Assembly: GCA_040880525.1 (NCBI GenBank)
Contig: JBBDIG010000024.1
Span: 12,522-76,521, forward strand
Origin: Bacteroidia bacterium
GTDB lineage: Bacteria; Bacteroidota; Bacteroidia; CAILMK01; JBBDIG01
DNA: 64,000 bases
Direction of reading: 5' to 3'
Both the position numbers and the translations under genes were made by a program. Positions 6,414 to 34,918 of this stretch are shown piece by piece. The notes below the pieces were generated by a model that saw only the letters and a list, made by a program, of their open reading frames with translations, had not been told where the DNA came from and made no database searches. Position 1 is the stretch's first letter. Each line of letters begins with the position of its first letter.

Positions 6414-6543
6414 TGGAATAAGGAAGTTTTTGCGGGGGCAAAATTAGGGAGAAAGCGGGGGAGGAGTGGGGCGGGGTTGGGAAGTCTAAAAGATTAATAT
6501 AAACCATCATTTTAATATGGTTTATATCCTGTGTGTGAAGTAG

Positions 6544-7686
6544 TTAGTTTATTATCACTTTTTTAGTAATAAGTTTTTCATTGATTTTAATTCGAATAAA
6601 ATACATTCCTTTAGCCAATCCTGACACATTGATCTCGTTTTTTTGTCCATATACCTTTACAGTTTTCCCGTTTGAATCCATTATCTCCACCGATTTTGGG
6701 ATTTGAGTGAATTTTAATACGTTGTTAGTTGGGTTTGGAAACAAACCTATTAAATGAGAGGTATTTATTCCAGGCTTTGGAAATGAAACTCCAGAATATC
6801 TCCAAACTCCTTCATACAATGTGCTCACGATTATGGATCTGTTATGAATGACAAAGTCTGAAATAAAATTACCTAAAAAACTTGAGTTGTGAGAGGTCCA
6901 TGTGTTGCCAGTATCGGAAGATAAAAAAATGCTTTTACCCCATGTTCCGCTGAGCATTTTATCACCAGCCATAGTTACAGTTGTCACAAAATCCTCAGTT
7001 ATTCCGTTGCTTGATTTAATCCAAGTCTTTCCATAATTTTCTGATTTATAAAATCCATCTATGGTACCTGCTATTACAAGCGAATCGAAAATTTTTATGG
7101 AATTCGTTTGAATATTAACTCCACTTGGAGGGTTCCACGTGCTTCCTCCATCCGAAGACATAAAAATACCAATGTATGTTCCGGCAAAGATGGCTTGAGA
7201 GTTTATAGCTAATGATAAAGCATTCAAATTTTTTAAACCATTATTGATTGCGGTCCAGCTCGAACCGTTGTTCAATGATTTAAAGACGCCTCCACCAGCC
7301 GTGCCTACATAAAGAATGGAACCTAAAGCTACTATATCCCTTATGTCTAGATTAGTAAGCCCATTGTTTATAGGTGTCCATGACGAACCATTGTTGTCTG
7401 ATAAGAACAGACCATTCCATGTCCCCGCATAGATATTCCCCTGATTGGTTTCGATGACCCTAACTACTCTTTCAGATAGTCCGGTATTTATAGAATTCCA
7501 CGTCAATCCATTATCTGTTGAAAGGAATATTCCGTCAAAATCGGTTCCAACATAAAGATTAGTTTCATCACTTGCTACACATCTGGCTTTAACATCGGAG
7601 AGTCCTAATAAGTCCCATTGTGCAATCGCATGAAGGGAGTAAAAAATTGATAGAAATATTGTTAATAGTTGTTTCATGGCTTTCAA
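6544..7686 (-). CDS. BNR/sortilin-repeat protein with T9SS C-terminal sorting domain
   Basis: It has a signal peptide and repeated 'S.DGG.SW' BNR-like motifs. The C-terminal ~80 aa ('LFPNPTNNVLKF...GMYFIRIKIN') look like a Por secretion CTD. Confidence 0.7.
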   Translation of the reverse strand: MKAMKQLLTIFLSIFYSLHAIAQWDLLGLSDVKARCVASDETNLYVGTDFDGIFLSTDNGLTWNSINTGLSERVVRVIETNQGNIYAGTWNGLFLSDNNGSSWTPINNGLTNLDIRDIVALGSILYVGTAGGGVFKSLNNGSSWTAINNGLKNLNALSLAINSQAIFAGTYIGIFMSSDGGSTWNPPSGVNIQTNSIKIFDSLVIAGTIDGFYKSENYGKTWIKSSNGITEDFVTTVTMAGDKMLSGTWGKSIFLSSDTGNTWTSHNSSFLGNFISDFVIHNRSIIVSTLYEGVWRYSGVSFPKPGINTSHLIGLFPNPTNNVLKFTQIPKSVEIMDSNGKTVKVYGQKNEINVSGLAKGMYFIRIKINEKLITKKVIIN

Positions 7687-7695
7687 TTTTAGCTA

Positions 7696-8229
7696 TTAAT
7701 TTGTAGATAAGTCAAAGCGACCCTCTGTAATATGAATGATCTCCCCCCTGTCGTCAATGGCTGTGAACTCAAAGGTTCCGGCAAGGATGTTATTTTGGAA
7801 ATACTTTACCGTTACCCAGCCTTTATGATCTTCGTTTGTTGAATATTTAGATTCTGCTAAGACATAATTTTCCACAGGAATGTAAAAGTATCCAACGCTT
7901 TTTTCATATTGATTTAATTCCTTCGCAAAATTTAAAGACTCAAAAATGAATTTAAGTGAAATGCTTGCCTTTAGGGGTTTTTCTTCGTTAGCATTTATGT
8001 AGATCAAAGTATCACTACCGGATAATATCCAGTAATAGTCAACTCCTTTCGGACTCATTGGGTTATTATCCATTACACCTTCAGCAATAAATACCTCTCC
8101 GCTTATTTTGCAGGCAAAGATATTTTTCCCTTCCTGGGTGTAAGGAGGCAGTTGCGGTTTGGGCGGTTCCTTTTTGCAGCCACTAACCAGCGTTGCAAGG
8201 AACAGTGTCAGGAGTGCTATTGATTTCAT
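7696..8229 (-). CDS. lipoprotein, hypothetical (tandem paralog 1)
   Basis: 'MKSIALLTLFLATLVSGC' is a lipoprotein signal. It is a paralog of the ORF at 8408-8941. Confidence 0.6.
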   Translation of the reverse strand: MKSIALLTLFLATLVSGCKKEPPKPQLPPYTQEGKNIFACKISGEVFIAEGVMDNNPMSPKGVDYYWILSGSDTLIYINANEEKPLKASISLKFIFESLNFAKELNQYEKSVGYFYIPVENYVLAESKYSTNEDHKGWVTVKYFQNNILAGTFEFTAIDDRGEIIHITEGRFDLSTN

Positions 8230-8407
8230 CTTTTCATGCTTTACTGAGTGAATGAGCGCTATTCAAAATGTACAAATTTGATTTGTGTCGTTTCTTTTGC
8301 ATTATCAGGAATAAGGCGCTCATTCTGAGCAAATGTTTGGTGAGAAAAAGCAAAGCTGTCAAGTATTAAAAAGGTATAAGTTGTTTCATGGATTTCAGTG
8401 TTAGCTA

Positions 8408-8941
8408 TTATTTTGTGAAGAAGTCAAATCGTCCGTCTGTAACATGAATAATCTCTCCCCGGTCGTCAATGGCTGTGAATTCAAATGTTCCTGCAAGGAT
8501 GTTGTTTTGGAAATATTTTACCTGCACCCAGCCCTTATGCTCATCAGTTGTCTTGAAAATTGATTCAGCAAAAACATAATTTTCAACGGGTATGGAGATT
8601 CTGGCTACTGAATTTTCCTTTTGATTTAATTCAAATGTGTCTTTTATTAATGTATAGACAAAATCAACTGATACACTTGCCTCCGTTGGTTTTTTTTCCA
8701 CTGCTCTTATCTCCACTATCGTATCATTTCCCCAAACCATATAGTTATTGTCTGTTCCTTTCGGACTCATGGTATTCTTATCCATTACACCTTCAGCAAC
8801 GAATACTTCCCCATTTATTTTGCAGGCAAAGATATTTTTCCCTTCCTGGGTGTAAGGAGGCAGTTGCGGTTCAGGCAGGTCCTTTTTGCAGCCGTTTATC
8901 AGCGTTGCAAGAAACAGTGTCAGGAGGGCTATTGATTTCAT
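8408..8941 (-). CDS. lipoprotein, hypothetical (tandem paralog 2)
   Basis: 'MKSIALLTLFLATLINGC' is a lipoprotein signal. The N- and C-termini are near-identical to the ORF at 7696-8229. Confidence 0.6.
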   Translation of the reverse strand: MKSIALLTLFLATLINGCKKDLPEPQLPPYTQEGKNIFACKINGEVFVAEGVMDKNTMSPKGTDNNYMVWGNDTIVEIRAVEKKPTEASVSVDFVYTLIKDTFELNQKENSVARISIPVENYVFAESIFKTTDEHKGWVQVKYFQNNILAGTFEFTAIDDRGEIIHVTDGRFDFFTK

Positions 8942-9059
8942 CTTTTCATGCTTTTATGAGTGAATGAGCGTTATTCAAATGTACAAATTTGATTTGTGTC
9001 GTTTCTTTTGCATTGTCAGGAATAAGTCTCTCATCCTGAGCAAATGCTTTTTGAGAAAT

Positions 9060-10150
9060 CTTGAGCGTAGCGAAAGGTGTTGACTGTGGCAATCTGTAGC
9101 ACAACGAGCGTGCGTTGCGCTACAGATCGCCACGTCCTGCTTTTTCCGCTATCGCTCCAAAAGCACTCCTCGCGATGACAGTATGGAGATCGGAAGCCTA
9201 ACCCTAACGTCACTCTGATCGGAGCATAGCGGAGAGAAGAGTCTGGTGCTGAAATAACCGGGCGTGCAGCACACTACCAGATTCTTCGCTATCGCTCAGA
9301 ATGACGAGAGTTTTCCCACGCTGTCATTGCGAAGGAAACGACTTGAGCGCAGCGTAAGGTGTTGACTGTGGCAATCTGTGGCACAACGAGCGTGCGCTGA
9401 GCTACAGATTACCCACAGATCGCCACGTCCCGCTTTTTCCGCTATCGCTCCAAAAGCACTCCTCGCGATGACAGTATTGAGATTGGAAGCCTAACCCTAA
9501 CGTCACTCTGATCGGAGCATAGCGGAGAGAAGAGTCTGGTGCTGAAATAACCGGGCGTGCAGCACACTACCAGATTCTTCGCTATCGCTCAGAATGACGA
9601 GAGTTTTCCCACGCTGTCATTGCGAAGGAAACGACTTGAGCGCAGCGTAAGGTGTTGACTGTGGCAATCTGTGGCACAACGAACGTGCGCTGAACTACAG
9701 ATCACCATCAGATCACCACGTCCTGCTTTTTCCGCTTTCGCTGCAAAAGCATTCCTCGCGATGACAGTATAGAGATAGGCTGCCTAACCCTAACGTCATT
9801 CTGATCGCAGCACAGCGGAGAGAAGAGACTGGTGCTGGAATAACCGGGCGTGCAGCACACTCCCAGATTCTTCGCTATCGCTCAGAATGAGGAGAGTTTT
9901 CCCACGCTGTCATTGCGAAGGAAACGACTTGAGCGCAGCGTAAGGTGTTGACTGTGGCAATCTGTGGCACAACGAGCGTGCGCTGAGCTACAGATCACCA
10001 ACAGATCACCACGTCCCGCTTTCTCCGCTATCGCTCCAAAAGCACTCCTCGCGATGACAGTATGGAGATAGGCTGCCTAACCTCAACGTCACGCTGATCG
10101 GAGCGCAGCGGAGAGAAGAGTCTGGTGCTGGAATAACCGGGCGTGAAGTA
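9060..10150. repeat. tandem array of about 3.7 copies of a ~293-bp structured repeat with nested inverted repeats
   Basis: Unit starts ('cttgagcg[ct]agcg') fall at 9060, 9342, 9635 and 9928. The copies differ by only a few substitutions. Each unit contains long internal inverted repeats (for example 'cgtcactctgatcggagcatagcggagagaagagtctggtgctg' paired with 'cagcacactaccagattcttcgctatcgctcagaatgacg'). Confidence 0.9.
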
Positions 10151-10156
10151 AATTTA

Positions 10157-11065
10157 TTAGAATACCCTGCTAAACATTTGGCCGCCAAGGTCAGTCTTAT
10201 TTTGGTTCAATAAAAGAGTAAGCGCCAGTTGATGGCTCGCAAAAACATAATTATTACTTATAGGAAATTCATAATGGTATGATATCCTGATGACACCTTT
10301 TTGAATTCCGGTGAGTAAATAGATAGCCTCCATACTACCTTCCTCTAAAAAGACGCCTCCCGTAAACCAACCTTTGTGAGCTTGTATGCCGGTTAAAATC
10401 TTCCAGTTTGTTGACTTTTTTTCAAGAAGTACGGATGGGTTGATAACCCAACTTTTATCACCGGACGATAATTTATGCCAATAGCCACCCTGAAATCTAA
10501 AAACCCGGGGCTGTGGATTATCTCCGGAAAAAGTCCTCAGGATTGGACGGAATAAATTGTCCACACTTAATCCCCCGTAAAAGGTGTTTTTATAAAATAA
10601 AATACCAGTTCCCCAATTAATATAACTTTCGTGAGTTTCAAGATACCGGAGGTGGGAGGAAAGTGTTTCATCGGGAATTGTACTTTCAAAATAATTTGCC
10701 TTAACTCCTATGCGCATCGCCATCTTATCTGAAAACGAAATGCGGTAATTATACATCCCACCTACCGTGCTGTGTTTATCGAATGGCCAGCGATGATAGG
10801 AGGCGAAAAAGCCCAGGCCTCCACCCAATTGATCAAAGTGCTGATCATGGCTGCCAATCCATGCATCATTGGTTGCAGACAAAAAGCGTGACCAGCGTTG
10901 CATCCCACTCAGGGTTATCCGCGCATGTTCTGTGGTTCCGGCAAATGCGGGGTTTACCATCACGGGGAACGTCATTGGGTGCAGCAAACCCTCAATTTGA
11001 GCATATAAAGGGTTCGTGGTCAGTAACAGCGTGAATATCAGCAGGATTTTCATTATAGATGTCAT
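10157..11065 (-). CDS. type IX secretion system membrane protein, PorP/SprF family
   Basis: A signal peptide is followed by the PorP/SprF N-terminal signature '...NPAFAGT...LSGMQRWS'. The length is about 300 aa. Confidence 0.65.
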   Translation of the reverse strand: MTSIMKILLIFTLLLTTNPLYAQIEGLLHPMTFPVMVNPAFAGTTEHARITLSGMQRWSRFLSATNDAWIGSHDQHFDQLGGGLGFFASYHRWPFDKHSTVGGMYNYRISFSDKMAMRIGVKANYFESTIPDETLSSHLRYLETHESYINWGTGILFYKNTFYGGLSVDNLFRPILRTFSGDNPQPRVFRFQGGYWHKLSSGDKSWVINPSVLLEKKSTNWKILTGIQAHKGWFTGGVFLEEGSMEAIYLLTGIQKGVIRISYHYEFPISNNYVFASHQLALTLLLNQNKTDLGGQMFSRVF

Positions 11066-11189
11066 TGAGTGGTAAATTATAGGGTATTGAACATGCTTGA
11101 AAAGTTACCTTCTATTTTATAGGGCACAAGGAAGGTGTGAACAAGAAATTTTAATAATGAAGCAGCCGGGAACGCAGCCAACGCATTGT

Positions 11190-11440
11190 AGGATTCAGTA
11201 ATTACCGACAGAGGCTGAAGGACTGGTGGGGCGTGCAGCATGCCAGCATATTCTTCGGTGTCGCGCTGAATGACGAGGGATCCTTTCCTCCTGCCATTGC
11301 GAAGGAAAGGACTTAAGCGCCATCGAAAGGCGTTGACTGTGGCAATCTGTAGCCAAATGGAGGTGCGTTGGTCTACAGAACGCCACGTCCCACTTTCTTC
11401 GCTATCGCTCCGAATGCGGTCTTCGCGATGACATTACTGC
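11190..11440. repeat. diverged single copy of the same ~293-bp repeat family
   Basis: It shares 'gcattgcgaaggaaaggacttaagcgcc...ggcgttgactgtggcaatctgtagcc...cgccacgtcccactttcttcgctatcgctcc' with the array units. Confidence 0.75.
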
Positions 11441-11539
11441 GTCAGGCTGTGGCTTTTGTGGGAAAGATCAGGGATAAAGGGTTGAGGAATGTGAGCATTA
11501 ATTCCAGCAGGCGCCTAAATGATGCTAACGATCCTAAAC

Positions 11540-11926
11540 TCACCCCGCCACCATTCCCGCCACAACCTTCCCGCCCCAAACGGCCAGGATGCAGAGGAAT
11601 ACCTGCGCAGCTACGTATGCGGCAAAAGTGATCCAGCGGCCATGTTCCAGCATTTCGAATGACTCGAAGGCAAAGGAGGACATCGTGGTAAGGGAGCCAC
11701 AGAAACCCAGCGCTACCAGCATAAATTGTCGTTCTGAAAACAAACTGAATTGCAGGAAACCAAAAGCCATGATGCCGAAAAGGAAACTTCCCAGGAGGTT
11801 GACTGTGAGGGTTCCGAATGGCTTGTGCGGGAAATGGCCATGCATAAAATTGCTGATAAGCACCCGGAAAATGGCTCCGAAGAATCCTCCGGTTCCTATG
11901 ATCAGCAGGTTCATCAACGTGTTCAT
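11540..11926 (-). CDS. crcB: fluoride efflux channel CrcB/Fluc
   Basis: 'MNTLMNLLIIGTGGFFGAIFR...GFCGSLTTMSSF' is the CrcB signature. The start overlaps the upstream phosphatase gene by 4 bp (ATGA). Confidence 0.85.
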   Translation of the reverse strand: MNTLMNLLIIGTGGFFGAIFRVLISNFMHGHFPHKPFGTLTVNLLGSFLFGIMAFGFLQFSLFSERQFMLVALGFCGSLTTMSSFAFESFEMLEHGRWITFAAYVAAQVFLCILAVWGGKVVAGMVAG

Positions 11927-12558
11927 TCTTCTGCGTTTACCAGAATTTGGTTGAGGTGGGCGATGCAATTCTCCCGTGCAAGGGTTCGTCTTCCATCAGG
12001 TGAGATCGTAACCTGATACAGTCCAAGATTATGGTGCCTGAACTGCGACATATTTTGAAGAGGAAGCTGCAACAATTGACATAGGAAAATACGCATGGCC
12101 CGGCCATGCATACATACCAGTACGTTTTCATCATCCTCTCGCTGCATGATGAGGTCAATGACTTTTCGTTGACGCTTTGCTACGTCATCCGGGCTTTCTC
12201 CACCTTCTATCCCGTGGTGGGTTTCCCCCTTTTGCCACTTTATCACCAGTTCCTCATAATACGTTTTATGCAAATTGCTGATATGGCGTCCTTCAAAAGT
12301 GCCCCAGGAAATTTCATTTAGTCCGGGATGGCGTTCCGTAATTATATTATGGCCGGCAAAGGATTTTACAGATTCCTGTGATCTGAGTAGGGAGGAAACA
12401 TAGATTCTTGAGAATGGAATATGGCTATAATGATTGTAGAATGCCTCAGCTTGTTGCCGGCCTTTCTCATTCAGGCTCGTATCAATCCCAGAGCCCTGGA
12501 CGCAGCCAAGCCTGTTGTACTCCGTTTCTCCGTGCCTGATGATGAATATATTCTGCAT
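11923..12558 (-). CDS. histidine phosphatase family protein (phosphoglycerate-mutase-like)
   Basis: The N-terminus reads 'IFIIRHGETEYN', the RHG catalytic motif. Confidence 0.75.
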   Translation of the reverse strand: MQNIFIIRHGETEYNRLGCVQGSGIDTSLNEKGRQQAEAFYNHYSHIPFSRIYVSSLLRSQESVKSFAGHNIITERHPGLNEISWGTFEGRHISNLHKTYYEELVIKWQKGETHHGIEGGESPDDVAKRQRKVIDLIMQREDDENVLVCMHGRAMRIFLCQLLQLPLQNMSQFRHHNLGLYQVTISPDGRRTLARENCIAHLNQILVNAEE

Positions 12559-12708
12559 ATTTTTGTATTTACGTAAGAAGAATTTCCCAGTGCAAAGGAA
12601 GTGCTTCTGAAGGAAAAAATAATTTATTTGCTTTTACTATATTATTCAAAAGCAAATTATCTTTGCGAAATATTTATTTCAACCAAAAAATCGTTTTAAG
12701 ACCACGCC

Positions 12709-13146
12709 ATGAAGAACTTAAGCGCTTTTACCCTGCTCATGCTTGTGAGCTTGTTTTCCATAGAGTCAGCTCTCGCACAGCCCAAAGTTAAAGAGAATAC
12801 GGCTGTAGGAAAGTCCATAGAGTTTGACACTCAATCCTATGACTTTGGACATGTGGAGGCCGGGAATTACCCCGGCTACCGGTTTGTATTCGTAAACAAC
12901 AGTTCCAAGCGAGTGTCGGTAACCGGGTTTGGCCGGGTCTGTAACCTCACGGTTCCAGCCTATAGTCAGGAACCTATAGAGCCTGGAGAAAGCGGATTTG
13001 TTAAGATAGTGCTGAACCCCAGGGACCTGAACGGAAGTATCAGGAAAAATTTCCAGATAATATTTACGTATTCCGATGACGGACAGCAGATGAGAACAGG
13101 TAAGAATCTTATTGTAGAGGGCAATATCGTACCTGAGCAAATATAA
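12709..13146 (+). CDS. DUF1573 domain-containing secreted protein (paralog 1)
   Basis: It has a signal peptide. The DUF1573-like core reads 'FDTQSYDFGHVEAGNY...VCNLTVPAY...PIEPGESGFVKIVLNPRDLNG'. Confidence 0.65.
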   Translation: MKNLSAFTLLMLVSLFSIESALAQPKVKENTAVGKSIEFDTQSYDFGHVEAGNYPGYRFVFVNNSSKRVSVTGFGRVCNLTVPAYSQEPIEPGESGFVKIVLNPRDLNGSIRKNFQIIFTYSDDGQQMRTGKNLIVEGNIVPEQI

Positions 13147-13234
13147 ACTCCATCACCTGATGGATGTGCCTGCAAACTTTATGAATCCTGCCGGGGTTGA
13201 AATATCCTGACAGGATTTTTTATTATATAGCGAT

Positions 13235-13660
13235 ATGATCAATACCAATATTCCGCTATCCGACCTGAGAGAAATTACGAGAGGTACGATGGTGGAGACT
13301 CTGGGTATGGAGTTTATAGAATTAGGCCCGGAAATGCTGAAGATGCGAATGCCGGTTGACCATCGCACCCGGCAGCCACTTGGCCTCCTGCACGGAGGCG
13401 CCTCTGCAGCCCTGGCTGAAACCGTAGGAAGCATGGCAGCTCATCTTTATATAGATGATACCGAATATTATTGCGTGGGTATTGAGATAAAATGCAATCA
13501 CGTACGTGGAATTACTTCCGGATTCGTGATGGGAACGGCTACTCCCATTCATACCGGCAAAAGAACCCATGTATGGCAAATAGACATCACAGATGAAGAA
13601 CACATCCGGGTTGCATTTAGTACGCTTACTTTAGCGGTGCTTCCCAAAAAGAACAGATAG
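13235..13660 (+). CDS. hotdog-fold thioesterase, PaaI/YbdB/DHNA-CoA-thioesterase family
   Basis: 'LHGGASAALAETVGSMAA...GIEIKCNHVRG...GKRTHVWQIDITDE' is the PaaI-type motif. Confidence 0.75.
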   Translation: MINTNIPLSDLREITRGTMVETLGMEFIELGPEMLKMRMPVDHRTRQPLGLLHGGASAALAETVGSMAAHLYIDDTEYYCVGIEIKCNHVRGITSGFVMGTATPIHTGKRTHVWQIDITDEEHIRVAFSTLTLAVLPKKNR

Positions 13661-13740
13661 AAAGCAGGATTAAAATTGCGTACGTATAAACTTTTTTTGA
13701 GATACTTTATTAGTAGTATATCCTTAAACAGATAAAAAAA

Positions 13741-14205
13741 ATGAATAATAAAATTCTGGTTGTAATGACAGTGTCCTTGCTCTTAGTGTTTCAAACCGGC
13801 TGCGGAGTATTTGGAAACGGAGCCAAACAGGTGAATGGCAAAGACGTCAAGAAAGGGGCATTGGACATTGTTTTTGTAAAAGATAATTATGATTTTGGGG
13901 TAGTGGAGCAGGGAAATTATCCAGGCTATGAGTTCATATTCGTAAACAAAAGCGAAGTGCCTGTCCAGGTTCAGGAATTCAGAGGATGCAATCTCACGGT
14001 TCCTGCCTATAGTAAAGAAACCATCAATCCGCAGGATAGTGGTTTCTTTAAGCTCATTCTTAATCCGCGGGACATCAGCGGGAAGTTTCAGAAGAAGATG
14101 CAGCTTGTATTCAAATATGAAAAGAAAGGTGAGGATCAATATACTTATGAAGAGGTATATCTCACCGGCAAGGTGATAAGAGGCTATTCTTCCAAGCGTG
14201 AGTGA
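13741..14205 (+). CDS. DUF1573 domain-containing secreted protein (paralog 2)
   Basis: It has a signal peptide with a Cys lipobox-like 'QTGC'. The core reads 'YDFGVVEQGNYPGYEFIFVNKS...GCNLTVPAY...SGFFKLILNPRDISG'. Confidence 0.65.
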   Translation: MNNKILVVMTVSLLLVFQTGCGVFGNGAKQVNGKDVKKGALDIVFVKDNYDFGVVEQGNYPGYEFIFVNKSEVPVQVQEFRGCNLTVPAYSKETINPQDSGFFKLILNPRDISGKFQKKMQLVFKYEKKGEDQYTYEEVYLTGKVIRGYSSKRE

Positions 14206-14270
14206 GCCTGCCATGGAACTATTAGATTAATTAGATCAAATTAAATAGAGTTTTATCTCTTAAAATTTCA

Positions 14271-14305
14271 AGCCCGGCAACTTAATTCTGCTGGGCTTTT
14301 TTTTA
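14271..14305 (+). terminator. rho-independent terminator-like hairpin + T-run
   Basis: 'agcccggcaacttaattctgctgggct' is followed by 'tttttttt', directly after DUF1573 paralog 2. Confidence 0.6.
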
Positions 14306-14542
14306 TGCCTGAGCCTTGGTATATCATTAATTCAATGGGTTAAGTGAGGTTAGGATATTCAATTGTCGCTTGTTGTTCCGCAACCAAAAGCTATTATTCT
14401 GACACTAGAAAGATAGATTATGATACAGGTTTCAGAGCAAAGAGTGGTGCGCTTACTTTTGTAGCGATCAATGACGGAAGGGAAAACCCAGATTGGTCAA
14501 TAAGGGAAAATTTTTTGAATCAACGCGCTAAAATTTGATGTT

Positions 14543-15016
14543 ATGAAAAAAGTACACGCACTATCATTTTCGTTTGTTCTGCTAATGGTCGCAGGATCTT
14601 TTCAATCAGCTAACGCTCAGTTCTGGAACAAATTCAACCAGAATAACAAAGTAGGCGAAAGTGTAATTGAAATTAGTTTTGAGCAAATGCAACACGATTT
14701 CGGAAAAGTGGAAAGAGGCAACTATCCGGATTACACATTTGCCTTTAAGAACACCAGTGATAAGCCGGTAAAGGTGGTTGGCTTTGACAGAGCCTGCAAC
14801 GTTACTATTCCTGCTTATACCAAAGAGGTGATCCAGCCAGGTGAGGAAGGTTACTTCAAAGTGGTTTTTAACACCCGTGATATTAACGGTGAATTCCGCA
14901 AGCACATGAATGTGATCTTCACCTATCAGGATGAAATTACCAAGGAGCACGTGATGAGCAAGGAAATAGTGAAGCTTTCGGGAAGTGTAGCCCACGAGGT
15001 TGCCATCCAGGACTAA
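14543..15016 (+). CDS. DUF1573 domain-containing secreted protein (paralog 3)
   Basis: It has a signal peptide. The core reads 'HDFGKVERGNYPDYTFAFKNTSDKPVKVVGFDRACNVTIPAY...PGEEGYFKVVFNTRDINGEF'. Confidence 0.65.
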   Translation: MKKVHALSFSFVLLMVAGSFQSANAQFWNKFNQNNKVGESVIEISFEQMQHDFGKVERGNYPDYTFAFKNTSDKPVKVVGFDRACNVTIPAYTKEVIQPGEEGYFKVVFNTRDINGEFRKHMNVIFTYQDEITKEHVMSKEIVKLSGSVAHEVAIQD

Positions 15017-15020
15017 GCGC

Positions 15021-15665
15021 TTAGCTCAGCCGGAAATGCAGATATTTGATCGTTAAGCCCTCTGCCAGAAATTTCTTTTCATAAGTAGTTTGTATGGCGG
15101 TCAGATGATTAAGCATATTAGAATGATAAAGGTTATACGTGTATCCAAGCACGCTATAACCTTTTTCATTTAATACCTCCAGGCCATAATTAAAGAGGGC
15201 TTCATTGTCAGTTTTAAAATGCACCATGCTATTGGGCTCCAGTATCTGGCAGTAAAGATCCAGAAACCGGGGAGAGATCAATCTTTTCCCGGCTTTGCTT
15301 TTCCGGGGATACGGGTCAGGAAAAGTGATCCAGATTTCGCTGACTTCACCTTTCTCAAAAAAATCATCAATGCGCTCTATGAGGATGCGCAGAAAGGCTA
15401 CGTTGTACAGGTTCAAATCCAGGGCTTCTTTGGCTCCATTGTGTAAGCGAGGCCCTTTTACGTCTACTCCAATGAAATTATACTGCGGGTAGTGCTTCGC
15501 CAGATTAATGGTGTACTCACCCTTGCCGCAACCCAGTTCAAGAATTACCGGATGATCATTTTGAAAAACCTCCTTATTCCAGTTTCCTTTTAATGCTTTC
15601 GGTTCTTCAAACACATTGGGCATCGTTTTCAGTGCCAGGATCTTTTCTCGCTTTCTTCTTGCCAT
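15021..15665 (-). CDS. trmB: tRNA (guanine46-N7)-methyltransferase
   Basis: 'LELGCGKGEYTINLAKHYPQYNFIGVD...ITFPDPYPRK' is the TrmB signature. Confidence 0.85.
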   Translation of the reverse strand: MARRKREKILALKTMPNVFEEPKALKGNWNKEVFQNDHPVILELGCGKGEYTINLAKHYPQYNFIGVDVKGPRLHNGAKEALDLNLYNVAFLRILIERIDDFFEKGEVSEIWITFPDPYPRKSKAGKRLISPRFLDLYCQILEPNSMVHFKTDNEALFNYGLEVLNEKGYSVLGYTYNLYHSNMLNHLTAIQTTYEKKFLAEGLTIKYLHFRLS

Positions 15666-15685
15666 TTTGCCTTGTTTGGAAAATA

Positions 15686-17548
15686 TTACCGGCTTTCGCT
15701 TTGTGAATTTATTTCTTCTTCCACTTCCGAATCCGTTTTCGGTTGGTCCAGATCACCGATATATACAAGGATATCTCCTTCCTCTGAAAACAGGGACTGC
15801 CCGCTGAATGCTTCGATCCGGGCATCGCTTTTCTTGATGAAAAAAGGAATTAAATTGGGATTTGCATTTAGAAACGATTTCAGATCCGTTCCTTTTGGAA
15901 TTTCCATCTCCTGTAAATTTGGTTTTCGTCTGATGGCCTGGATGAGTTGAATGTAGTCAACGCTGGTTCCAAACAGCAGGTTTCGCGGTTTGATCAGCTC
16001 CTTAAACTCCATCTCACGCTGAGACATGAGGCGCAAGGTATGGTCCTCTCCAAACTCTTCACGGAATTTTCTCATTGCCAGAATATTGATTTCGGTATTG
16101 GAAGTGAGCGCGAACAGCCGGCCTTTATCGGCAAGGTCTATTTCCTCAAGCGCATCATCAGAAAGGATGCTCCCCTCATACACAGGCAGCCCCTGGGATT
16201 TGCTTTCCATAATATTGGAATGGGCTGTATCCGCAAGCAAAACTGGCACATCGTTATCTCTCAGGTATCTGGCCAGAAATCTGGCGATCTCATTAGCCCC
16301 CACAAAAAGAACTCCCTGCGGTTCTTTACGCGTGAGGCCCAGCCAACTCAAAACATATTTGGCTGAGCCACCCTGGAGTATTACAGTACCGATAATGATC
16401 AGAAAGGTAAGCGGAAGCAGTAACGCGGCATCCCGGTTTTCTGCCGGCAACACGGAAGTATCCTTCATGATCTCCAGCGAAAAAAGGGAAGCTACCGCAG
16501 CCGCCACAATCCCCCTCGGCCCAATCCATGAAATAAACACCTTTTCGCGAAAGCTCAGGTTAGAGCGAAAGGTGCTCATAAACACAGCCAGCGGCCTCAG
16601 CAGGAATATCACCACTAAGAAGAGGATAATGCTATTGAAGCCTAAGGACTCAATATCCTGGATTTGAATTCGGGATGAGAGAATGATAAAGAGAAGGGAA
16701 ATAAGAATGACGCTGATATCCTCTTTAAAGGAAAGGAGATTTTTTAGTTCCTCGATCCTCATATTTCCAAGGATCATTCCCATTAAGGTAACGGCCAATA
16801 AGCCGCTCTCATGATAAACCGCATCAGAAATAGCGAAGGTGCCGACAACCAGCGCCAGCGTAACAATATTTTTCAGGAAACCGGGCAGCAATCGTTTTCT
16901 GATCATAAAATAAAGGGCAAGGGCGCTGACAGTTCCGATGATAGCGCCTACCAGTATGGTGAGAAAGAAATTGGTGAAAAAAACCAGTGTGTATTCGTCA
17001 CCCGGCTTGCTGAAGCGAATGAACTCGTACACCAGCACTGCCACAAGTGCTCCAATAGGGTCAATGAGTATTCCCTCCCATTTAAGAACCGTATTGATAT
17101 TTTTTGTAGGCCTGATGTTTCTGAGGATGGGCGCAATAACGGTGGGACCGGTCACAATAATGAGCGCACCGAAGAGCAGTGAAATTTTCCAGTGCATCCC
17201 CAGGAGATAGTAGGCGGCAAGGCTTCCTCCAATCCAGGTGATGGCGGCACCGATGGTAAGCAGGTTCCTGACGGTATGGGCCAAATGCCGGATCTCCTTC
17301 AGCTTCAGGGTAAGCCCACCTTCAAATAATATTACGCCTACTGACAGCGCGACAAAGGCAAATAGCACATCACCGTTAAAAATGGCATCACCATCAATCA
17401 ACTTCTCACCGTCAGCCGTAATGAAAGTTGATAACGGGCCTACCATCAGGCCTATGATGATAAGAGGAAGAATTGCGGGCAGCTTCACCCTCCACGCAAG
17501 CCATTGTGAGAACATCCCTAGTACTAATATTGCCGCAAGCTCTATCAT
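15686..17548 (-). CDS. cation:proton (Na+/H+) antiporter, CPA1/NhaP-type, with C-terminal cytoplasmic regulatory domain
   Basis: An N-terminal polytopic Na_H_exchanger-like domain of about 400 aa is followed by a hydrophilic C-terminal region of about 200 aa. Confidence 0.75.
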   Translation of the reverse strand: MIELAAILVLGMFSQWLAWRVKLPAILPLIIIGLMVGPLSTFITADGEKLIDGDAIFNGDVLFAFVALSVGVILFEGGLTLKLKEIRHLAHTVRNLLTIGAAITWIGGSLAAYYLLGMHWKISLLFGALIIVTGPTVIAPILRNIRPTKNINTVLKWEGILIDPIGALVAVLVYEFIRFSKPGDEYTLVFFTNFFLTILVGAIIGTVSALALYFMIRKRLLPGFLKNIVTLALVVGTFAISDAVYHESGLLAVTLMGMILGNMRIEELKNLLSFKEDISVILISLLFIILSSRIQIQDIESLGFNSIILFLVVIFLLRPLAVFMSTFRSNLSFREKVFISWIGPRGIVAAAVASLFSLEIMKDTSVLPAENRDAALLLPLTFLIIIGTVILQGGSAKYVLSWLGLTRKEPQGVLFVGANEIARFLARYLRDNDVPVLLADTAHSNIMESKSQGLPVYEGSILSDDALEEIDLADKGRLFALTSNTEINILAMRKFREEFGEDHTLRLMSQREMEFKELIKPRNLLFGTSVDYIQLIQAIRRKPNLQEMEIPKGTDLKSFLNANPNLIPFFIKKSDARIEAFSGQSLFSEEGDILVYIGDLDQPKTDSEVEEEINSQSESR

Positions 17549-22149: not shown

Positions 22150-22237
22150 ATAAAAACAGGATTTACCATAGTTATGAATTAATATACTATTGTTAATATT
22201 TTGTGGTAAAGTAGTTTTGTTAAAAATATTAATCAAA

Positions 22238-23086
22238 ATGAAACTACGATACTTACTTCTTTCCCTGGCCCTGATCCCGGGGTACTCACTTTTGCACGGA
22301 CAAACCTCATTGCCTTATTACTCAGCCTTTGACGATGCTTCGCAGCAGGACGGCTGGGAGGAATACGAAACGGGCACAGACAGCGATCCTTACCACTGGA
22401 ATTTTGCATCATTTGCAGCCTACTCCCCTCCACATAGCCTGAATCACAACTATCCTGTGGGCGGCTCGGAGCGCACCGATGACTGGTTTGTATCACCCGA
22501 ATTCGATTTTAGCAATGGCGCTACTATAGATTCATTGCGGTATGTTTTCACAGGTTTCGGTACACCCATGGACGGAGATACGATCGCGATCTATCTTATT
22601 AATGGTTCGAAAGATCCGGAGACAGCCACAACCCGCACCATTCTTTACAATTTTACTGACAGCACCTATGAGAATGATAATGTTTGGCGAAAGCTGGAGG
22701 CATTGAATATTCCCGCCACCAGCGGACAAAGCCACATAGCATTCCGTTATACCACCATTGTGAACTGGCTGGATGTGAGACTGGATAATTTAAAGATCAG
22801 CGAAAAGCCCACTGGTATAAATGAACCGGCAGCAATCAATGAGGCGATTACTATATATCCAAATCCGGTTATCACAGAATTAACGGTAGCGTGGAATTTC
22901 AGATCTGAAGGAGCCACCATTACGCTGTTCAATATGAATGGAAAAGTGATGCAGCGCCAATTGATCGCAGGAGAATCTCAGCAGAAGCTTATCCTGGAAA
23001 CCGGTGGGTTAAAGCCGGGAATATATATGTTACAGGTTACCGGCACGTCAGGCCGTGTTTTTTCCAGAAGATTTTTGAAACAATAA
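22238..23086 (+). CDS. secreted protein with T9SS C-terminal sorting domain
   Basis: It has a signal peptide 'MKLRYLLLSLALIPGYSLLHGQ'. The C-terminal CTD reads 'ITIYPNPVITELTV...GIYMLQVTGTSGRVFSRRFLK'. Confidence 0.65.
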   Translation: MKLRYLLLSLALIPGYSLLHGQTSLPYYSAFDDASQQDGWEEYETGTDSDPYHWNFASFAAYSPPHSLNHNYPVGGSERTDDWFVSPEFDFSNGATIDSLRYVFTGFGTPMDGDTIAIYLINGSKDPETATTRTILYNFTDSTYENDNVWRKLEALNIPATSGQSHIAFRYTTIVNWLDVRLDNLKISEKPTGINEPAAINEAITIYPNPVITELTVAWNFRSEGATITLFNMNGKVMQRQLIAGESQQKLILETGGLKPGIYMLQVTGTSGRVFSRRFLKQ

Positions 23087-23153
23087 ATTATTTTAATGTA
23101 AAAAGTGATCTTAATATTCAAATTAGGATTGCATAAATTAAATAGTAAAACCA

Positions 23154-24056
23154 ATGAAAGTTTCGAGACGCACAGCCATAAAATCTTCTCTGCTAACTGG
23201 CCTGGGCCTGATGATGCCCGCAAGAATGATAGCGGATGAATGCCTAACAACGGCAGACATTGAAGGACCATATTATATACCCGGTTCTCCACACAGCAGC
23301 AAAATAGCATCATCCGGATCAGCGGGCACAAAGCTGTTCATCACAGGCAGCGTGTATGCTAACGATTGCACTACGCCCATAAAGGGTGCTGTGGTTGACG
23401 TGTGGCAGGCAAATGATGGTGGCGGATATGAGGATGAAAATTATCGCGGAATTATTAAGACAGATCAAACCGGGAAATATGCGTTTGAGTCAATTCTACC
23501 CGGCAAATACCTGAACGGTTCCCAATACCGGCCGCGCCACCTGCACTATAAGGTATCGGCTCCGGACATTATTCCCGGCCTCGTTCTCACCACCCAGATA
23601 TATTTTGAGGGCGATACCTCGATTCCTATAGATCCATGGGCCTCTGATCCTGATGCTGCAGAAAGGATCATTGCGCTGAGCACAGACCAGAACAATGCTG
23701 AGCATGGCGTGGCAGATATAGTGATAGACATTGATCCTGAGTTGGTGACCGGCACAGGCGCTCAGCCGGCTGAGATGGGAACCGGGATCGGCAGCATTAA
23801 GCCCAACCCGGTGCAGGAATCAGCAACCGTAATAATAGCGCTTGCACGGGCAGGCCGTGCATCTCTGAAAGTATATAATCTGGATGGCCGGGAAATAATG
23901 AAGGTGATTGAGAATAAAGCCATGAATGCAGGTGAGCACCGGCTGCCCTTTTTTGCACGGAACCAATATGGGCTGAAACTAAGCTCCGGCATCTATATTA
24001 TGAAGTTATGGCAGGAGGGTATTCCTGCAGATGTGAAGCGATTTGTAGTGCGTTGA
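23154..24056 (+). CDS. intradiol ring-cleavage dioxygenase-like protein with Tat signal and T9SS C-terminal sorting domain
   Basis: 'SRRTAIKSSLLTGLGLMMPA' is a twin-arginine signal. The dioxygenase core reads 'EGPYYIPGSP...GAVVDVWQANDGGGYED...YRPRHLHYKVSAP...TQIYFEGD'. The C-terminal ~80 aa form a T9SS CTD ('...GIYIMKLWQEG...'). Confidence 0.7.
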   Translation: MKVSRRTAIKSSLLTGLGLMMPARMIADECLTTADIEGPYYIPGSPHSSKIASSGSAGTKLFITGSVYANDCTTPIKGAVVDVWQANDGGGYEDENYRGIIKTDQTGKYAFESILPGKYLNGSQYRPRHLHYKVSAPDIIPGLVLTTQIYFEGDTSIPIDPWASDPDAAERIIALSTDQNNAEHGVADIVIDIDPELVTGTGAQPAEMGTGIGSIKPNPVQESATVIIALARAGRASLKVYNLDGREIMKVIENKAMNAGEHRLPFFARNQYGLKLSSGIYIMKLWQEGIPADVKRFVVR

Positions 24057-33180: not shown

Positions 33181-34185
33181 TTAAGTGTTCTTTTTCTGTT
33201 GAAATATAGAATAGGAAGTGTCTTCCATTTCCATGGTATTGCGCAGGAGTCCAAGTCCTTCCACTTCCAGTTCTACCTGGTCGCCATCGTTTAGCCACTG
33301 ATCTTCATGTTCAGGATTTTTGAGGCGGGCGGTGCCGTTCAATTCCAGGAAGCAGCCTGTGCCCACCGTACCTGAACCGATGATGTCCCCAGGCATCAGG
33401 TCTACTCCGTAAGAAACACGCTCAATGATCTCGGCAAAAGTCCAGTCCATATCTTTCAGGTTGCCACGGCTCACTTCTTTACCGTTTACCCGCGCGACCA
33501 TTTTCAGATCATAAGCATTTCCGGTGTGGCCGTTTTTAGCCGGGGTTTTATACTGTTCCAGTTCATCAGGGGTTACCAGCCAGGGCCCTATTATAGTAGA
33601 GAAATCTTTTCCTTTTGCAGGACCGAGGTTCAGCTTCATCTCCTCCATTTGCAGCCTGCGGGCACTTAGGTCGTTCATTATCATGTATCCAGCAATGTAA
33701 TCGTCTGCTTCTTCTGCGCGGATGTTCCGGCCATCTTTTCCAATCACTATCGCCACCTCCAGTTCAAAATCCAGCTTCTCGAAGTGGTCCGGCATCAGTT
33801 CAATTTCGCCTGGTCCCATTACCGCATTGTGGTTGGTAAAGTAAAATACCGGGAATTGATCAAATTCGGGGATCATCTCTACTCCACGGTTTCTGCGGGC
33901 GGTAGCTACATGCTGCCGAAAGGCATAAGCATCGCGGCAACTGGTGGGATAAGGCACCGGTGCCATCACGTCAAGCGTATTAAAATCCAGTGCCTTTTCA
34001 CTGTATTTTCCCTCCAGCAGCTTTTTGTTCAGCTTCCTGGCCCTCGGTATGGCATCTTCTTCCATGAGGAAATCCAGCATATTGTCCGGCATTCCCGGTT
34101 CTATTTCGTCCAACGGATATACGTTGCCATCGTGGTAAAATCCCAGCCGGTCGCAATCTCCGTCAAGGTAGGATACTAACTTCAT
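33181..34185 (-). CDS. fumarylacetoacetate hydrolase (FAH) family protein
   Basis: The FAH fold motifs are 'VFYFTNHNAVMGPGE...ELEVAIVIGKDGRNI' and 'IGSGTVGTGCFLE'. The start was chosen at MKLVSYLDG. Confidence 0.75.
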   Translation of the reverse strand: MKLVSYLDGDCDRLGFYHDGNVYPLDEIEPGMPDNMLDFLMEEDAIPRARKLNKKLLEGKYSEKALDFNTLDVMAPVPYPTSCRDAYAFRQHVATARRNRGVEMIPEFDQFPVFYFTNHNAVMGPGEIELMPDHFEKLDFELEVAIVIGKDGRNIRAEEADDYIAGYMIMNDLSARRLQMEEMKLNLGPAKGKDFSTIIGPWLVTPDELEQYKTPAKNGHTGNAYDLKMVARVNGKEVSRGNLKDMDWTFAEIIERVSYGVDLMPGDIIGSGTVGTGCFLELNGTARLKNPEHEDQWLNDGDQVELEVEGLGLLRNTMEMEDTSYSIFQQKKNT

Positions 34186-34335
34186 TTTTTCGTCTTTAGG
34201 TGTGGGTGATCTTTTTGATAATTTGCCTCGGGGATATTTCCCGAAGCTATTTAAACATTGCCCCCTGGAAATGTTTAAATCTCGTGGCAAAGGTAGAAAG
34301 GCAGAAGGAACCTTTTATAGCCGTAAACACCAGGT

Positions 34336-34500
34336 AATAGATGCTTCTAGGTTCAATGTTCAATGTTCCGAGTTCAACGTTCGATGTTCCGAGTTCAACG
34401 TTCAATGTTCGATGTTCACTGGTCAGTGGTCGATGCTTCGTAGAACACAGAACCCGGAACCCGGAACGCAGAACCCGGAACGCAGAACTCGTTTCAGTAT
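34336..34500. repeat. heptanucleotide-phased GTTC/GAAC repeat tract (imperfect long palindrome)
   Basis: The sequence (gttcNNN)x~10 runs into (NNNgaac)x~7, for example 'gttcaatgttcaatgttccgagttcaacgttcgat...agaacccggaacccggaacgcagaacccggaacgcagaac'. It sits in a divergent intergenic region. Confidence 0.85.
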
Positions 34501-34540: not shown

Positions 34541-34918
34541 TTGATGGAAGATTACAAAAAGGGAAGTTCGAACATGTTATTCGTGGTGCTTGGGGTGTTT
34601 ATCCTGCTTCTGGGAATCGTGTTCGCGTTACAGAATTCTCAGGTTACGCCCATTAAATTCCTGTTGTGGGAATTTCAGGGTTCACTCGCCCTTGTACTGG
34701 CCATAGTGTTTGTGGGTGGAGTATTGTTAGGGTTGTTCAGCATTATCAATAATGTATGGCGCAGAGACCGGATGATTTCCCGTCAGAAGAAGGAGATGAA
34801 AAATCTGAATGTGCAGATACAAACACTAAAAGAAGAAAAGGCTGCACTTCAAAACCAGGAGATTGATGGAGGCGGTAAACGCGGCTCTTCTGGTGGGATC
34901 AAGGATTTTACTGAATAG
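34541..34918 (+). CDS. LapA-family (DUF1049) inner-membrane protein
   Basis: Two transmembrane helices ('LFVVLGVFILLLGIVFALQN...', 'LALVLAIVFVGGVLLG') are followed by a coiled-coil tail. Confidence 0.6.
   Translation: MMEDYKKGSSNMLFVVLGVFILLLGIVFALQNSQVTPIKFLLWEFQGSLALVLAIVFVGGVLLGLFSIINNVWRRDRMISRQKKEMKNLNVQIQTLKEEKAALQNQEIDGGGKRGSSGGIKDFTE

Follow-up and report, generated by a model that had tools for sequence, protein, structure and literature searches.

A probable BIME-like cluster of REP-type hairpin modules downstream of a PorP/SprF family gene in an uncultured Bacteroidia lineage

What kind of repetitive DNA follows the PorP/SprF family gene of this Bacteroidia bacterium, and how did it come to be there in several copies? 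Within the window (the whole 64-kb stretch of DNA that was analysed), Tandem Repeats Finder delimits an array at positions 9060-10145 with a period of 293, 3.7 copies, 93% matches and a score of 1829. The unit starts obtained by repeat search and by blastn agree with this result, and the direct-repeat families D1 and D3 are concordant, which confirms the tandem array first described in a sequence-only reading of this DNA. The description of the copies as near-identical is not borne out, the units being 92-97% identical. Units 1 and 2 share 97.2% identity (8 substitutions and an 11-nt indel), the remaining unit pairs share 91.8-93.6% with 14-23 substitutions each, and 40 of the 293 columns are variable across the array. 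Amplification in tandem stands, but calling it recent was an overstatement because most unit pairs differ by 6-8%. An 11-nt microduplication, located in the right arm of the central palindrome of hairpin I (described below), is present in units 2-4 (9402-9426, 9695-9719 and 9988-10012) and absent from unit 1. The GC content of the array is 52%, against 33-41% in its neighbours. As the same reading had proposed, the small ORFs called at 9031-9213 and 10006-10188 are present but spurious: they have no Pfam family, the array contains stops in all six frames and its period is not a multiple of 3.

Each unit comprises four hairpin modules, M1 to M4, arranged as two head-to-head dimers with their tags pointing outwards (Table 1). 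A module carries an unpaired tag (CGTC or TGTC) on a basal stem of 5 bp that leads to an apex of the GAGCG-N-GCGA type, and its 3' tail reads CTG or CTC. The basal stem begins A-T (A-C in M3) directly 3' of the tag, and is followed by a purine-rich internal loop (a tandem G·A in M4) and then by an apical GC-GNA/GNNA-GC mini-hairpin. The M4 stem, ATTCT+GA+GC, spans 9 positions, 7 of them Watson-Crick, and closes on a 4-nt GATA loop; in M1 and M2 the 5-bp basal stems enclose long interiors. When the module motifs were compared with chance expectation, 7 matches were obtained where 0.1 was expected and 5 where 0.3 was expected. In total, approximately 18 modules were found among the ~74 kb of genome examined, all of them at this one locus.

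Table 1. Positions in the window of the repeat units, their modules and the neighbouring features
Feature	Position	Strand	Description
Unit 1	9060-9341		282 nt
Unit 2	9342-9634
Unit 3	9635-9927
Unit 4 (partial)	9928-10145
M1, TGTC-tagged long hairpin	9321-9377	+	Basal stem ATTGC/GCAAT, apex GAGCGCAGCG; from regex map
M1, further copies	9614-9670, 9907-9963		5'-truncated copy at 9060-9095, array left edge
M2, TGTC-tagged long hairpin	9418-9474	-	Basal stem ATCGC/GCGAT, apex GAGCGATAGCG
M2, further copies	9125-9181, 9711-9767, 10004-10060
Hairpin I, central 21-bp palindrome	9086-9133		GTGGCAATCTGTAGC.../...GCTACAGATCGCCAC; formed by the 3' ends of M1 and M2
M3, CGTC-tagged hairpin	9208-9243	+	Basal stem ACTCT/AGAGT; left arm of hairpin II
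M3, further copies	9501-9536, 9794-9829, 10087-10122
M4, CGTC-ATTCT-GA-GC-GATA-GC-GA-AGAAT-CTGG	9277-9308	-	Right arm of hairpin II
M4, further copies	9570-9601, 9863-9894		Last copy (unit 3) CCTC-tagged
Single diverged unit	~11205-11445		Direct orientation; ~80% identical, 82-96% over matching pieces
Diverged-unit M4	11248-11275	-
Diverged-unit M1	11291-11348	+
Diverged-unit M2	11378-11434	-
PorP/SprF family gene	10157-11065	-	Pfam PF11751, E 6.7e-27
CrcB-like gene	11540-11968	-	Pfam PF02537, E 9.4e-26
DUF6252-like lipoprotein gene	8408-8941	-	Downstream of array
Lipoprotein paralogue	7696-8229
Degenerate REP-like remnant	9030-9058	+	CTCATCCTGAGCAAATG...; abuts array start; families D6, D7
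Remnant duplicate	8318-8347		Inside the ~680-bp lipoprotein duplication

M1 and M2, placed head to head, make up hairpin I, whose palindrome corresponds to inverted repeat I3 (90% complementary, with a 6-nt loop). M3 and M4 form hairpin II, a stem with arms of 44 and 40 nt and a 15-nt loop. The nested inverted repeats reported earlier are thus real, and comprise this stem together with a second, longer hairpin. In single-module folds the tags are unpaired, and the predicted energies differ between strands: -14.7 kcal/mol (sense) versus -7.0 (antisense) for M1, and -18.7 versus -11.2 kcal/mol for M2. The two arms of a dimer can also pair together rather than fold singly, which gives rise to the long stems that were noticed at the outset. 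Basal stems vary within the unit, with ATTGC/GCAAT alongside ATCGC/GCGAT and ATTCT/AGAAT alongside ACTCT/AGAGT, so that M2 differs from M1 by one compensatory pair change.

The copy said to lie across the PorP/SprF gene is indeed there, in direct orientation, and together with the array it brackets the gene. This diverged unit does not carry the 11-nt microduplication, and its M3 has decayed to about 11205-11235. Both the array and the diverged unit follow a stop codon and lie between co-directional genes. On the minus strand the PorP/SprF stop codon precedes the array by ~9-12 nt, and the diverged unit is found ~95 nt downstream of the CrcB-like stop codon. Databases contain no homologue of the PorP/SprF protein other than that same protein in an NCBI 'Bacteroidia bacterium' MAG. 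As read from the sequence, a TACATTTG box at 8976-8983 on the minus strand precedes the lipoprotein ATG by ~35 nt, and we take this box to be a putative Bacteroidota -7 promoter element. Scans for sigma-70 promoters and intrinsic terminators gave nothing above shuffled controls in the region.

A 17-nt motif at ~8318 and ~9030 had been put forward as a further fragment of the repeat. The motif exists at both places, but it has just 11 nt in common with the repeat (E 3.5), and its two occurrences are explained entirely by a tandem duplication of ~680 bp that carries the lipoprotein genes and contains both sites (7667-8347 versus 8379-9058, 79% identical by blastn). The remnant at 9030-9058 was not significant under R1, a covariance model introduced below.

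Taken together, this organisation makes it probable that the array is a BIME-like cluster of REP-type palindromic elements in which the unit is a four-module cassette. The basic BIME unit is two inverted REPs, and clusters reiterate such dimers with their linkers (PMC3733652 and PMC6006769, the latter of which also covers REPINs); the array is built in just this way. The closest description is that of the CGTC-tagged REP superfamily (Di Nocera et al., 2013, BMC Genomics 14:522; PMC3733652), which includes Neisseria dRS3 and Rickettsia RPE-4/-6, carries CGTC, TGTC or CCTC tags and A-T-first stems, and occurs mostly as head-to-head dimers. According to the same paper, these elements are extragenic, lie between unidirectional or convergent genes, have no known dedicated transposase and are found in Bacteroidetes and four other phyla; a family comprises anything from 20 to thousands of copies scattered over its host's genome, and clusters, which are rare, are dimers reiterated in tandem with flanking DNA. 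The published descriptors are a stem of 8-9 bp with A-T at its first two positions, a loop of 4-5 nt and a 3-nt CCA tail (PMC3733652).

Set against those descriptions, the modules share the unpaired CGTC/TGTC/CCTC tag at one end of the palindrome (CGTC in M3 and M4, TGTC in M1 and M2), the A-T-first stem (save in M3, which begins with A-C), the predominance of head-to-head dimers and the extragenic position between unidirectional or convergent genes. The superfamily, moreover, is reported there from Bacteroidetes and Chlorobi and is unusually alike in sequence across phyla. Differences are also apparent: the stem here is broken by tandem G·A mismatches, the loop has 3-4 nt, CTC or CTG replaces CCA as the tail, the long forms M1 and M2 measure 57 nt, and modules are clustered only, within the ~74 kb examined, whereas clusters are rare in the published account. 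The published stem, loop and tail descriptors are matched only loosely. One counterpoint to the REP reading is that REP families are normally dispersed, whereas the modules here occupy one locus in the ~74 kb examined. The earlier remark that the repeat was not recognised as a named family holds for the 293-nt composite but not for its four building blocks, which have the CGTC/TGTC-tagged REP layout and are matched by R1.

Two better-known systems offer further points of comparison. Like E. coli BIME-2 (tandem Y/Z2), the array has alternating REPs, conserved linkers and a dimer unit reiterated head to tail in a 3' intergenic region. BIME-2, however, is made of GTAG-tagged REPs with a cognate RAYT and gyrase binding, and its unit is much shorter than the 293-bp unit found here, with its four modules of two types. 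Hairpin II resembles a REPIN (Bertels and Rainey, 2011) in consisting of two inverted REP-like modules with a 15-nt loop over ~100 nt, but REPINs have tens to hundreds of dispersed copies and a single-copy RAYT, neither of which was seen in the ~74 kb. BIME and REPIN-RAYT systems combine a GTAG or GTGG guide tetranucleotide with a cognate RAYT (HUH-Y1) gene that the REPs flank; the tag here is (C/T)GTC, and no RAYT lies within the window. Neither a Y1_Tnp domain nor any other transposase was identified among the 63 long ORFs of the window. A crude HUH...Y motif scan for RAYT-like ORFs, which is insensitive, also found none in the window or in 223 environmental loci.

Membership of a wider module family was examined with covariance model R1, which was trained solely on 42 IMG/VR instances from unrelated contigs. 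R1 matches M4 three times (E 4.9e-7, 4.9e-7 and 1.1e-4) and also matches M3 (E 1.4e-3 for two copies, and 0.65), and over the 64-kb window it returns nothing else better than E 4. The 26-nt core of M4 is identical in IMG/VR loci L024, L036 and L096. The type-1 pattern was found at 107 IMG/VR loci with unrelated flanks and the type-2 pattern, which has the tag and basal stem of M1, at >120. Basal stems covary (ATTCT/AGAAT, ATCCT/AGGAT, ACCCT/AGGGT, ATTTT/AAAAT and ATGTT/AACAT), type-2 interiors are differing self-complementary sequences, and the environmental copies have a 3-nt loop. The long, 57-nt M1 and M2 variants have no exact-pattern match in JGI metagenomes, so that their link to the wider family runs through the tag, basal stem and apex alone.

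The environmental modules are distributed much as REPs are described to be. With crude ORF calling over 223 loci, 61% of modules fall within the 17% of sequence called non-coding, and their intergenic contexts are unidirectional in 113 cases, convergent in 36 and divergent in 14. The median distance from a module to the upstream stop codon is 37 nt. Pairs of modules no more than 200 nt apart are head to head in 80 cases versus tail to tail in 27 (223 loci), and orientation relative to genes is the same in 62 cases versus opposite in 51. Tandem reiteration also occurs elsewhere, at L083 (78 nt, 4.9 copies), L061 (33 nt, 4 copies) and L106 (108 nt, 2 copies).

Two recurring forms, TGTC-ATTCT-GA-GC-GNA-GC-GA-AGAAT-CTC and TGTC-ATTGC-GAG-[variable stem-loop]-GTG-GCAAT-CT, are conserved in sequence across >220 IMG/VR contigs that are classed as viral, range in GC from 32% to 69% and have unrelated flanks. 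The hairpins may accordingly be more than passive REPs: such conservation across contigs of varied GC would point to a cross-phylum element that a conserved putative enzyme reads or moves, in which case the array would be a naturally amplified substrate and possibly a landing pad; we regard this as unlikely. The putative enzyme would recognise the tag, basal stem and internal loop, and would ignore the apex.

A different view of the locus is that of a long, highly structured non-coding RNA transcribed from the array, or of a 3' UTR with many hairpins whose fold is kept by selection, with the unit as one structural domain. Both hairpins do fold beyond shuffled controls (z-scores of -3.7 and -4.3), and the minus strand of the array, which is sense for every flanking gene, gains 6-13 kcal/mol of stability per unit over the plus strand, with approximately twice as many G-U pairs. 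However, the strand favoured by folding energy and G-U counts is the opposite one in the diverged copy, both strands fold, and this copy lacks most of one arm of hairpin II (the 40-bp stem). Covariation between the copies is unfavourable: the RNAalifold term is +5.19, compensatory double changes are confined to 2 of 86 pairs, and numerous pairs are disrupted. Rfam 15 yields no family match even at E <= 10, the sole signal being noise from microRNA models at E 0.018, and across unrelated contigs the building blocks are found singly and in either orientation to genes. The highly structured RNA suggested by the sequence-only reading, with no Rfam match, unfavourable covariation and no consistent strand preference, is consequently improbable.

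The same reading had raised a MITE-like element. The 293-bp unit would then be a composite MITE inserted twice and then into itself, or the PorP/SprF gene would have inserted into a pre-existing array. Like MITEs, the repeat is small, non-coding, palindromic and GC-rich relative to its flanks, which it does not resemble in GC content; short inverted tags (CGTCA...TGACAG) delimit the unit, the gene has a direct-orientation copy site on either side, and the array ends within the hairpin II loop, the same loop being present in the diverged copy. Against this, no target-site duplication is seen at the boundaries of the array or the single unit, no long terminal inverted repeats or dispersed copies were found, the window contains no transposase, and the head-to-tail arrangement of units without spacers is that expected of duplication and not of repeated insertion. 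Moreover, no further copy of the composite turned up in any collection searched. Neither the remainder of the window nor another 10 kb of this genome contains it; searching 185,579 species genomes for a 19-mer common to all five copies gave 7 seed-only chance matches; JGI metagenomes had no match to a 22-mer or to a gapped pattern specific to M2, nor IMG/VR to a 27-mer, nor PLSDB or INPHARED to the unit by blastn. Among 5.8 billion proteins no candidate matched a 64-aa stop-free translation of hairpin I, and a literature search with motif strings returned PCR primers only. A composite MITE, or insertion of the gene into an existing array, is on this evidence very improbable.

An assembly artefact of misjoined or over-expanded repeat reads, affecting either the copy number or the array as a whole, is scarcely credible: although the only independent assembly (Logan) is a short-read one that ends 106 nt inside the array, so that the count of 3.7 copies has no independent confirmation, it is 100% identical over 7,026 nt, a stretch that takes in the right junction together with the 106 nt of array that it reaches, the single diverged unit sits in unique sequence in both assemblies, and the four units carry private substitutions, with an 11-nt segment missing from one, which artificial expansion would not yield. 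A CRISPR array, already discounted in the sequence-only reading, is rejected, as the units abut with no unique spacers and every part of the period is repeated; also rejected were a protein-coding repeat, a hammerhead-like core (the sequence has CUGA...GAA but lacks the UGA of CUGAUGA), an integron attC cassette (no GTTRRRY core, no integrase) and an iteron or origin (no Rep gene).

On our reading, the locus belongs to a known class of repetitive DNA in bacteria and is a REP cluster duplicated in tandem within a 3' intergenic region. The data show the anatomy of the unit, the family membership of its modules, their tandem amplification and their location, whereas the mechanism of duplication and any effect on mRNA are inferred. 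An ancestral 282-nt cassette, of the form kept in unit 1 and the diverged copy, may have lain in the intergenic DNA after the PorP/SprF gene and been multiplied head to tail, presumably by unequal recombination or replication slippage. The 11-nt microduplication would have arisen before later rounds of amplification, and the copies would then have drifted 3-8% apart without preservation of pairing. Any effect would be expected to be that known for REP/BIME elements. Placed where the PorP/SprF transcript ends (for the single unit, after CrcB), GC-rich hairpins would block 3'-to-5' exonucleases, and could reduce read-through towards the following gene, in front of which there is a separate promoter-like box. 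Shuffled sequence contains terminator-like sites at least as often as this region does.

In practical terms the locus has modest consequences. The array explains a break point in the short-read assembly and accounts for several of the spurious ORFs that gene callers will emit. The direct repeats that flank the PorP/SprF gene could mediate its deletion, but their identical stretches are of 24 nt or less. To our knowledge, REPs are poorly catalogued in the phylum Bacteroidota, and the locus adds a well-dissected REP/BIME-type architecture from an uncultured Bacteroidia lineage. We know of no enzyme that mobilises the tagged hairpins. Of more interest is the family-level by-product of the analysis, namely that these tagged hairpins are unusually conserved across very different environmental contigs.

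Tandem Repeats Finder returned one large array in the window (period 293, 3.7 copies, 93% matches, score 1829), and the unit starts given by the sequence-only reading were reproduced by repeat search and blastn, as was a diverged copy in direct orientation across the PorP/SprF gene. The copies had been described as near-identical; however, while units 1 and 2 are separated by 8 substitutions and an 11-nt indel, the remaining unit pairs differ by 14–23 substitutions (91.8–93.6% identity), and 40 of the 293 columns are variable. Unit 1 is 282 nt long; units 2–4, but not the diverged copy, have an 11-nt microduplication within one arm of a hairpin. The array is non-coding, in keeping with the earlier view that its ORFs are spurious: the period of 293 is not divisible by 3, all six reading frames contain stops, and the 50–63-aa ORFs within the repeat match no Pfam family. 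Its GC content is 52% against 33–41% in the neighbouring sequence, and the array is the only interruption in a low-GC stretch (window mean 45%) that holds PorP/SprF and both lipoprotein genes as well as a T9SS-CTD BNR/sortilin-like protein.

On either strand, one unit folds into a pair of long, imperfect hairpins, with energies for 331 nt of -118.9 kcal/mol (plus) and -127.9 kcal/mol (minus) and z-scores of -3.7 and -4.3. Dissection of the hairpin arms gave four modules per unit (M1–M4, see the table), all with an unpaired (C/T)GTC tag, a 5-bp basal stem and then a purine-rich internal loop. In M4, as in the common environmental form, this loop is made up of two G·A mismatches around a GC-GNA-GC mini-hairpin. 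Fold energies for the tag-sense versus the antisense strand were -14.7 versus -7.0 kcal/mol (M1), -18.7 versus -11.2 (M2), -8.8 versus -5.3 (M3) and -6.7 versus -4.3 (M4). M1/M2 and M3/M4 are head-to-head dimers with their tags outward, and arm-to-arm pairing within the dimers accounts for the 40-bp stem with its 15-nt loop (M3/M4) and for the longer hairpin with a 21-bp inner palindrome. The basal stems within each dimer differ by compensatory changes (ATTGC/GCAAT versus ATCGC/GCGAT; ACTCT/AGAGT versus ATTCT/AGAAT).

Modules of one repeat unit, and coordinates of features in the window and in three environmental loci
Feature	Position	Strand	Sequence or remark
M1		+	CTGTC-ATTGC-...GAGCGCAGCG...-GCAAT-CT
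M2		-	CTGTC-ATCGC-...GAGCGATAGCG...-GCGAT-C
M3		+	CGTC-ACTCT-GA...-AGAGT-C
M4		-	CGTC-ATTCT-GA-GC-GATA-GC-GA-AGAAT-CTGG
Tandem array	9060-10145		
Diverged copy	~11229-11436		
CrcB	11968-11540	minus	
PorP/SprF	11065-10157	minus	
Two lipoprotein genes (DUF6252-like)	8941-8408; 8229-7696	minus	
~680-bp tandem duplication	7667-8347; 8379-9058		carries both lipoprotein genes
Low-GC stretch	~6450-10650		33-41% GC
DUF1573/HYDIN-like Ig-domain genes	12709-13146; 13741-14205; 14543-15016		three paralogues, interleaved with 4HBT thioesterase gene
Genes with T9SS C-terminal sorting domains	22190-24056		two neighbours; one is Dioxygenase_C fused to Por_Secre_tail
FAA-hydrolase gene	33181-34290	minus	
Heptad repeats	34351-34488		~ten (GTTCAAT, GTTCCGA, GTTCGAT), then ~seven (AGAACCC, GGAACGC)
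LapA-domain gene	34541-34918	plus	
CHU_C-domain gene	44169-46898		nearest to PorP/SprF
L061 tandem dimers	9365-9496		
L106 tandem dimers	9535-9751		
L083 tandem dimers	8923-9485		adjoin a cspA-thermoregulator-like leader (Rfam E 2e-9, below gathering score)

The modules of the array belong to a widespread hairpin family. In IMG/VR the pattern GTCATTCTGAGCG-N(1-6)-GCGAAGAATC, with 23 fixed bases, matched 107 loci with unrelated flanks, and TGTCATTGCGAG-N(8-38)-GTGGCAATCT matched at least 120. The interiors of the latter are many differing self-complementary sequences, which indicates a conserved base with a variable apical stem. The basal-stem variants in the environmental loci all retain full complementarity (ATCCT/AGGAT, ACCCT/AGGGT, ATTTT/AAAAT and ATGTT/AACAT), and the host contigs span 32–69% GC. 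A covariance model (R1) trained solely on 42 environmental instances was applied, unfiltered, to the entire window, where it matched M4 in three copies (E 4.9e-7, 4.9e-7 and 1.1e-4), M3 in two (E 1.4e-3) and the apex of a truncated M1 (E 0.25), with no further match better than E 4 in the remaining window. Ten further kb of the same genome gave no module match, and the modules in this genome segment are confined to one cluster. Rfam has no model for them, as judged from searches of the window and of module-rich environmental loci.

ORFs were called crudely in 223 environmental loci (83% coding sequence), and 194 of 319 full modules fell in the non-coding 17%. The intergenic contexts were unidirectional (113), convergent (36) or divergent (14), modules lay a median of 37 nt past the upstream stop codon, and orientation relative to the genes was unbiased in these loci (62 same versus 51 opposite). 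Neighbours no more than 200 nt apart were arranged head-to-head (80 pairs), tail-to-tail (27) or directly (110). Tandemly reiterated dimers also occur outside the window, in L083 (78 nt x 4.9), L061 (33 nt x 4) and L106 (108 nt x 2). Two sequence-conserved tagged hairpin types recur amid unrelated flanks in the viral-classed contigs L009–L231 of IMG/VR (more than 220), some of which hold up to 25 modules.

The layout of the modules would be that of Neisseria dRS3 (CGTC-ATTCCCGC-loop-GCGGGAAT-CCA). Di Nocera et al. (2013; PMC3733652) describe the CGTC-tagged REP superfamily as having an unpaired tag that reads CGTC, or frequently TGTC or CCTC, 8–9 bp stems opening with A-T pairs, 4–5 nt loops and a 3-nt tail; head-to-head dimers predominate, lying extragenically between genes that run in one direction or converge. 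The superfamily occurs in Proteobacteria, Chlorobi, Bacteroidetes, Spirochaetes and Thermotogae, with high cross-taxon similarity and without an associated transposase. The array modules agree with this description in their tag, head-to-head arrangement and location, and, except for M3 (A-C), in the A-T start; stem length, loop length and tail fit only loosely. In BIMEs and REPINs the basic unit is a pair of inverted REPs, and a RAYT recognises the GTAG or GTGG guide of classical REPs (Quentin et al., 2018; PMC6006769). In contrast to that system, the array modules lack a GTAG guide and the window lacks a RAYT: none of its 63 long ORFs encodes a transposase or HUH protein, and a crude regex found no HUH-Y protein in the 223 loci. 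The array is probably a REP/BIME-type cluster, a known kind of element.

The sequence-only reading, which had raised a highly structured RNA or a MITE-like element as possibilities, is confirmed in its observation and supported in part in its interpretation. In favour of an RNA gene, the array units carry more G-U pairs on the minus strand. However, RNAalifold on three full units and the diverged copy gave a covariation term of +5.19, and in these four sequences, which afford low power, double changes affect only 2 of 86 pairs and many pairs are broken. M3 is largely gone from the diverged copy, and with it one arm of the 40-bp stem; in addition, the array units prefer the minus strand by 6–13 kcal/mol whereas the diverged copy prefers the plus strand. 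These four sequences, with their low power, give no sign that the composite fold is under selection. As to a MITE, the 293-nt composite was not found elsewhere: a 19-mer common to all five copies gave seed-length chance matches only among 185,579 species genomes, two composite-unit patterns had no match in JGI metagenomes, nor had the composite in IMG/VR, PLSDB or INPHARED, and a translated stop-free frame had none among 5.8 billion proteins. Finally, an assembly artefact is argued against by the private substitutions and indel of the units, which artificial expansion would not generate, and by the Logan short-read assembly of SRR27977663, which is 100% identical to 10040–17065 (7,026 nt), therefore includes the diverged unit and the right junction of the array, and, with the copy number of 3.7 outside its reach, stops 106 nt into the array as a de Bruijn assembler is expected to at a genuine repeat.

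The setting of the array is a 3′ intergenic one. Every flanking gene is encoded on the minus strand, and the order is CrcB, single unit, PorP/SprF, array, two lipoprotein genes. Read on that strand, the array begins ∼ 9–12 nt past the PorP/SprF stop codon and ends ∼ 75 nt short of a TACATTTG box that precedes the lipoprotein ATG by ∼ 35 nt and that we take to be a putative Bacteroidota -7 promoter element; sigma-70 promoter and terminator scans of the region remained at background level. A repeat fragment reported upstream of both lipoprotein genes is present at ∼ 8318 and ∼ 9030, but at 11 nt its resemblance to the repeat is at chance level, and it is doubled only because both sites sit inside the ∼ 680-bp duplication. 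The latter is 79% identical overall and 91–94% in its upstream and 5′ part, and on its right it runs directly up to the first base of the array. Direct copies do flank PorP/SprF, as had been noted, with at most 24 identical bases shared; this ‘bracketing’ is best interpreted as two successive intergenic regions each occupied by REP clusters. PorP/SprF is not adjacent to a type-B CTD cargo gene. Elsewhere, the GTTC and GAAC heptad cores in the divergent FAA-hydrolase/LapA-domain intergenic region are reverse-complementary and so form a long imperfect palindrome.

The array probably arose by amplification of a cassette, made up of two REP dimers, in the 3′ intergenic region. Slippage or unequal recombination would have multiplied it, with the 282-nt form ancestral and the 11-nt microduplication preceding the later rounds of amplification, and the copies would at present be drifting. 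Any function would most likely be a generic REP/BIME one, with 3′ hairpins hindering exonucleases and read-through. The source organism is barely sampled: apart from an identical NCBI ‘Bacteroidia bacterium’ MAG protein, PorP/SprF had no homologue at E < 1e-20 among 5.8 billion proteins. The curiosity lies at the level of the family, in which tagged hairpins with no known mobilising enzyme are conserved in sequence across very different contigs.
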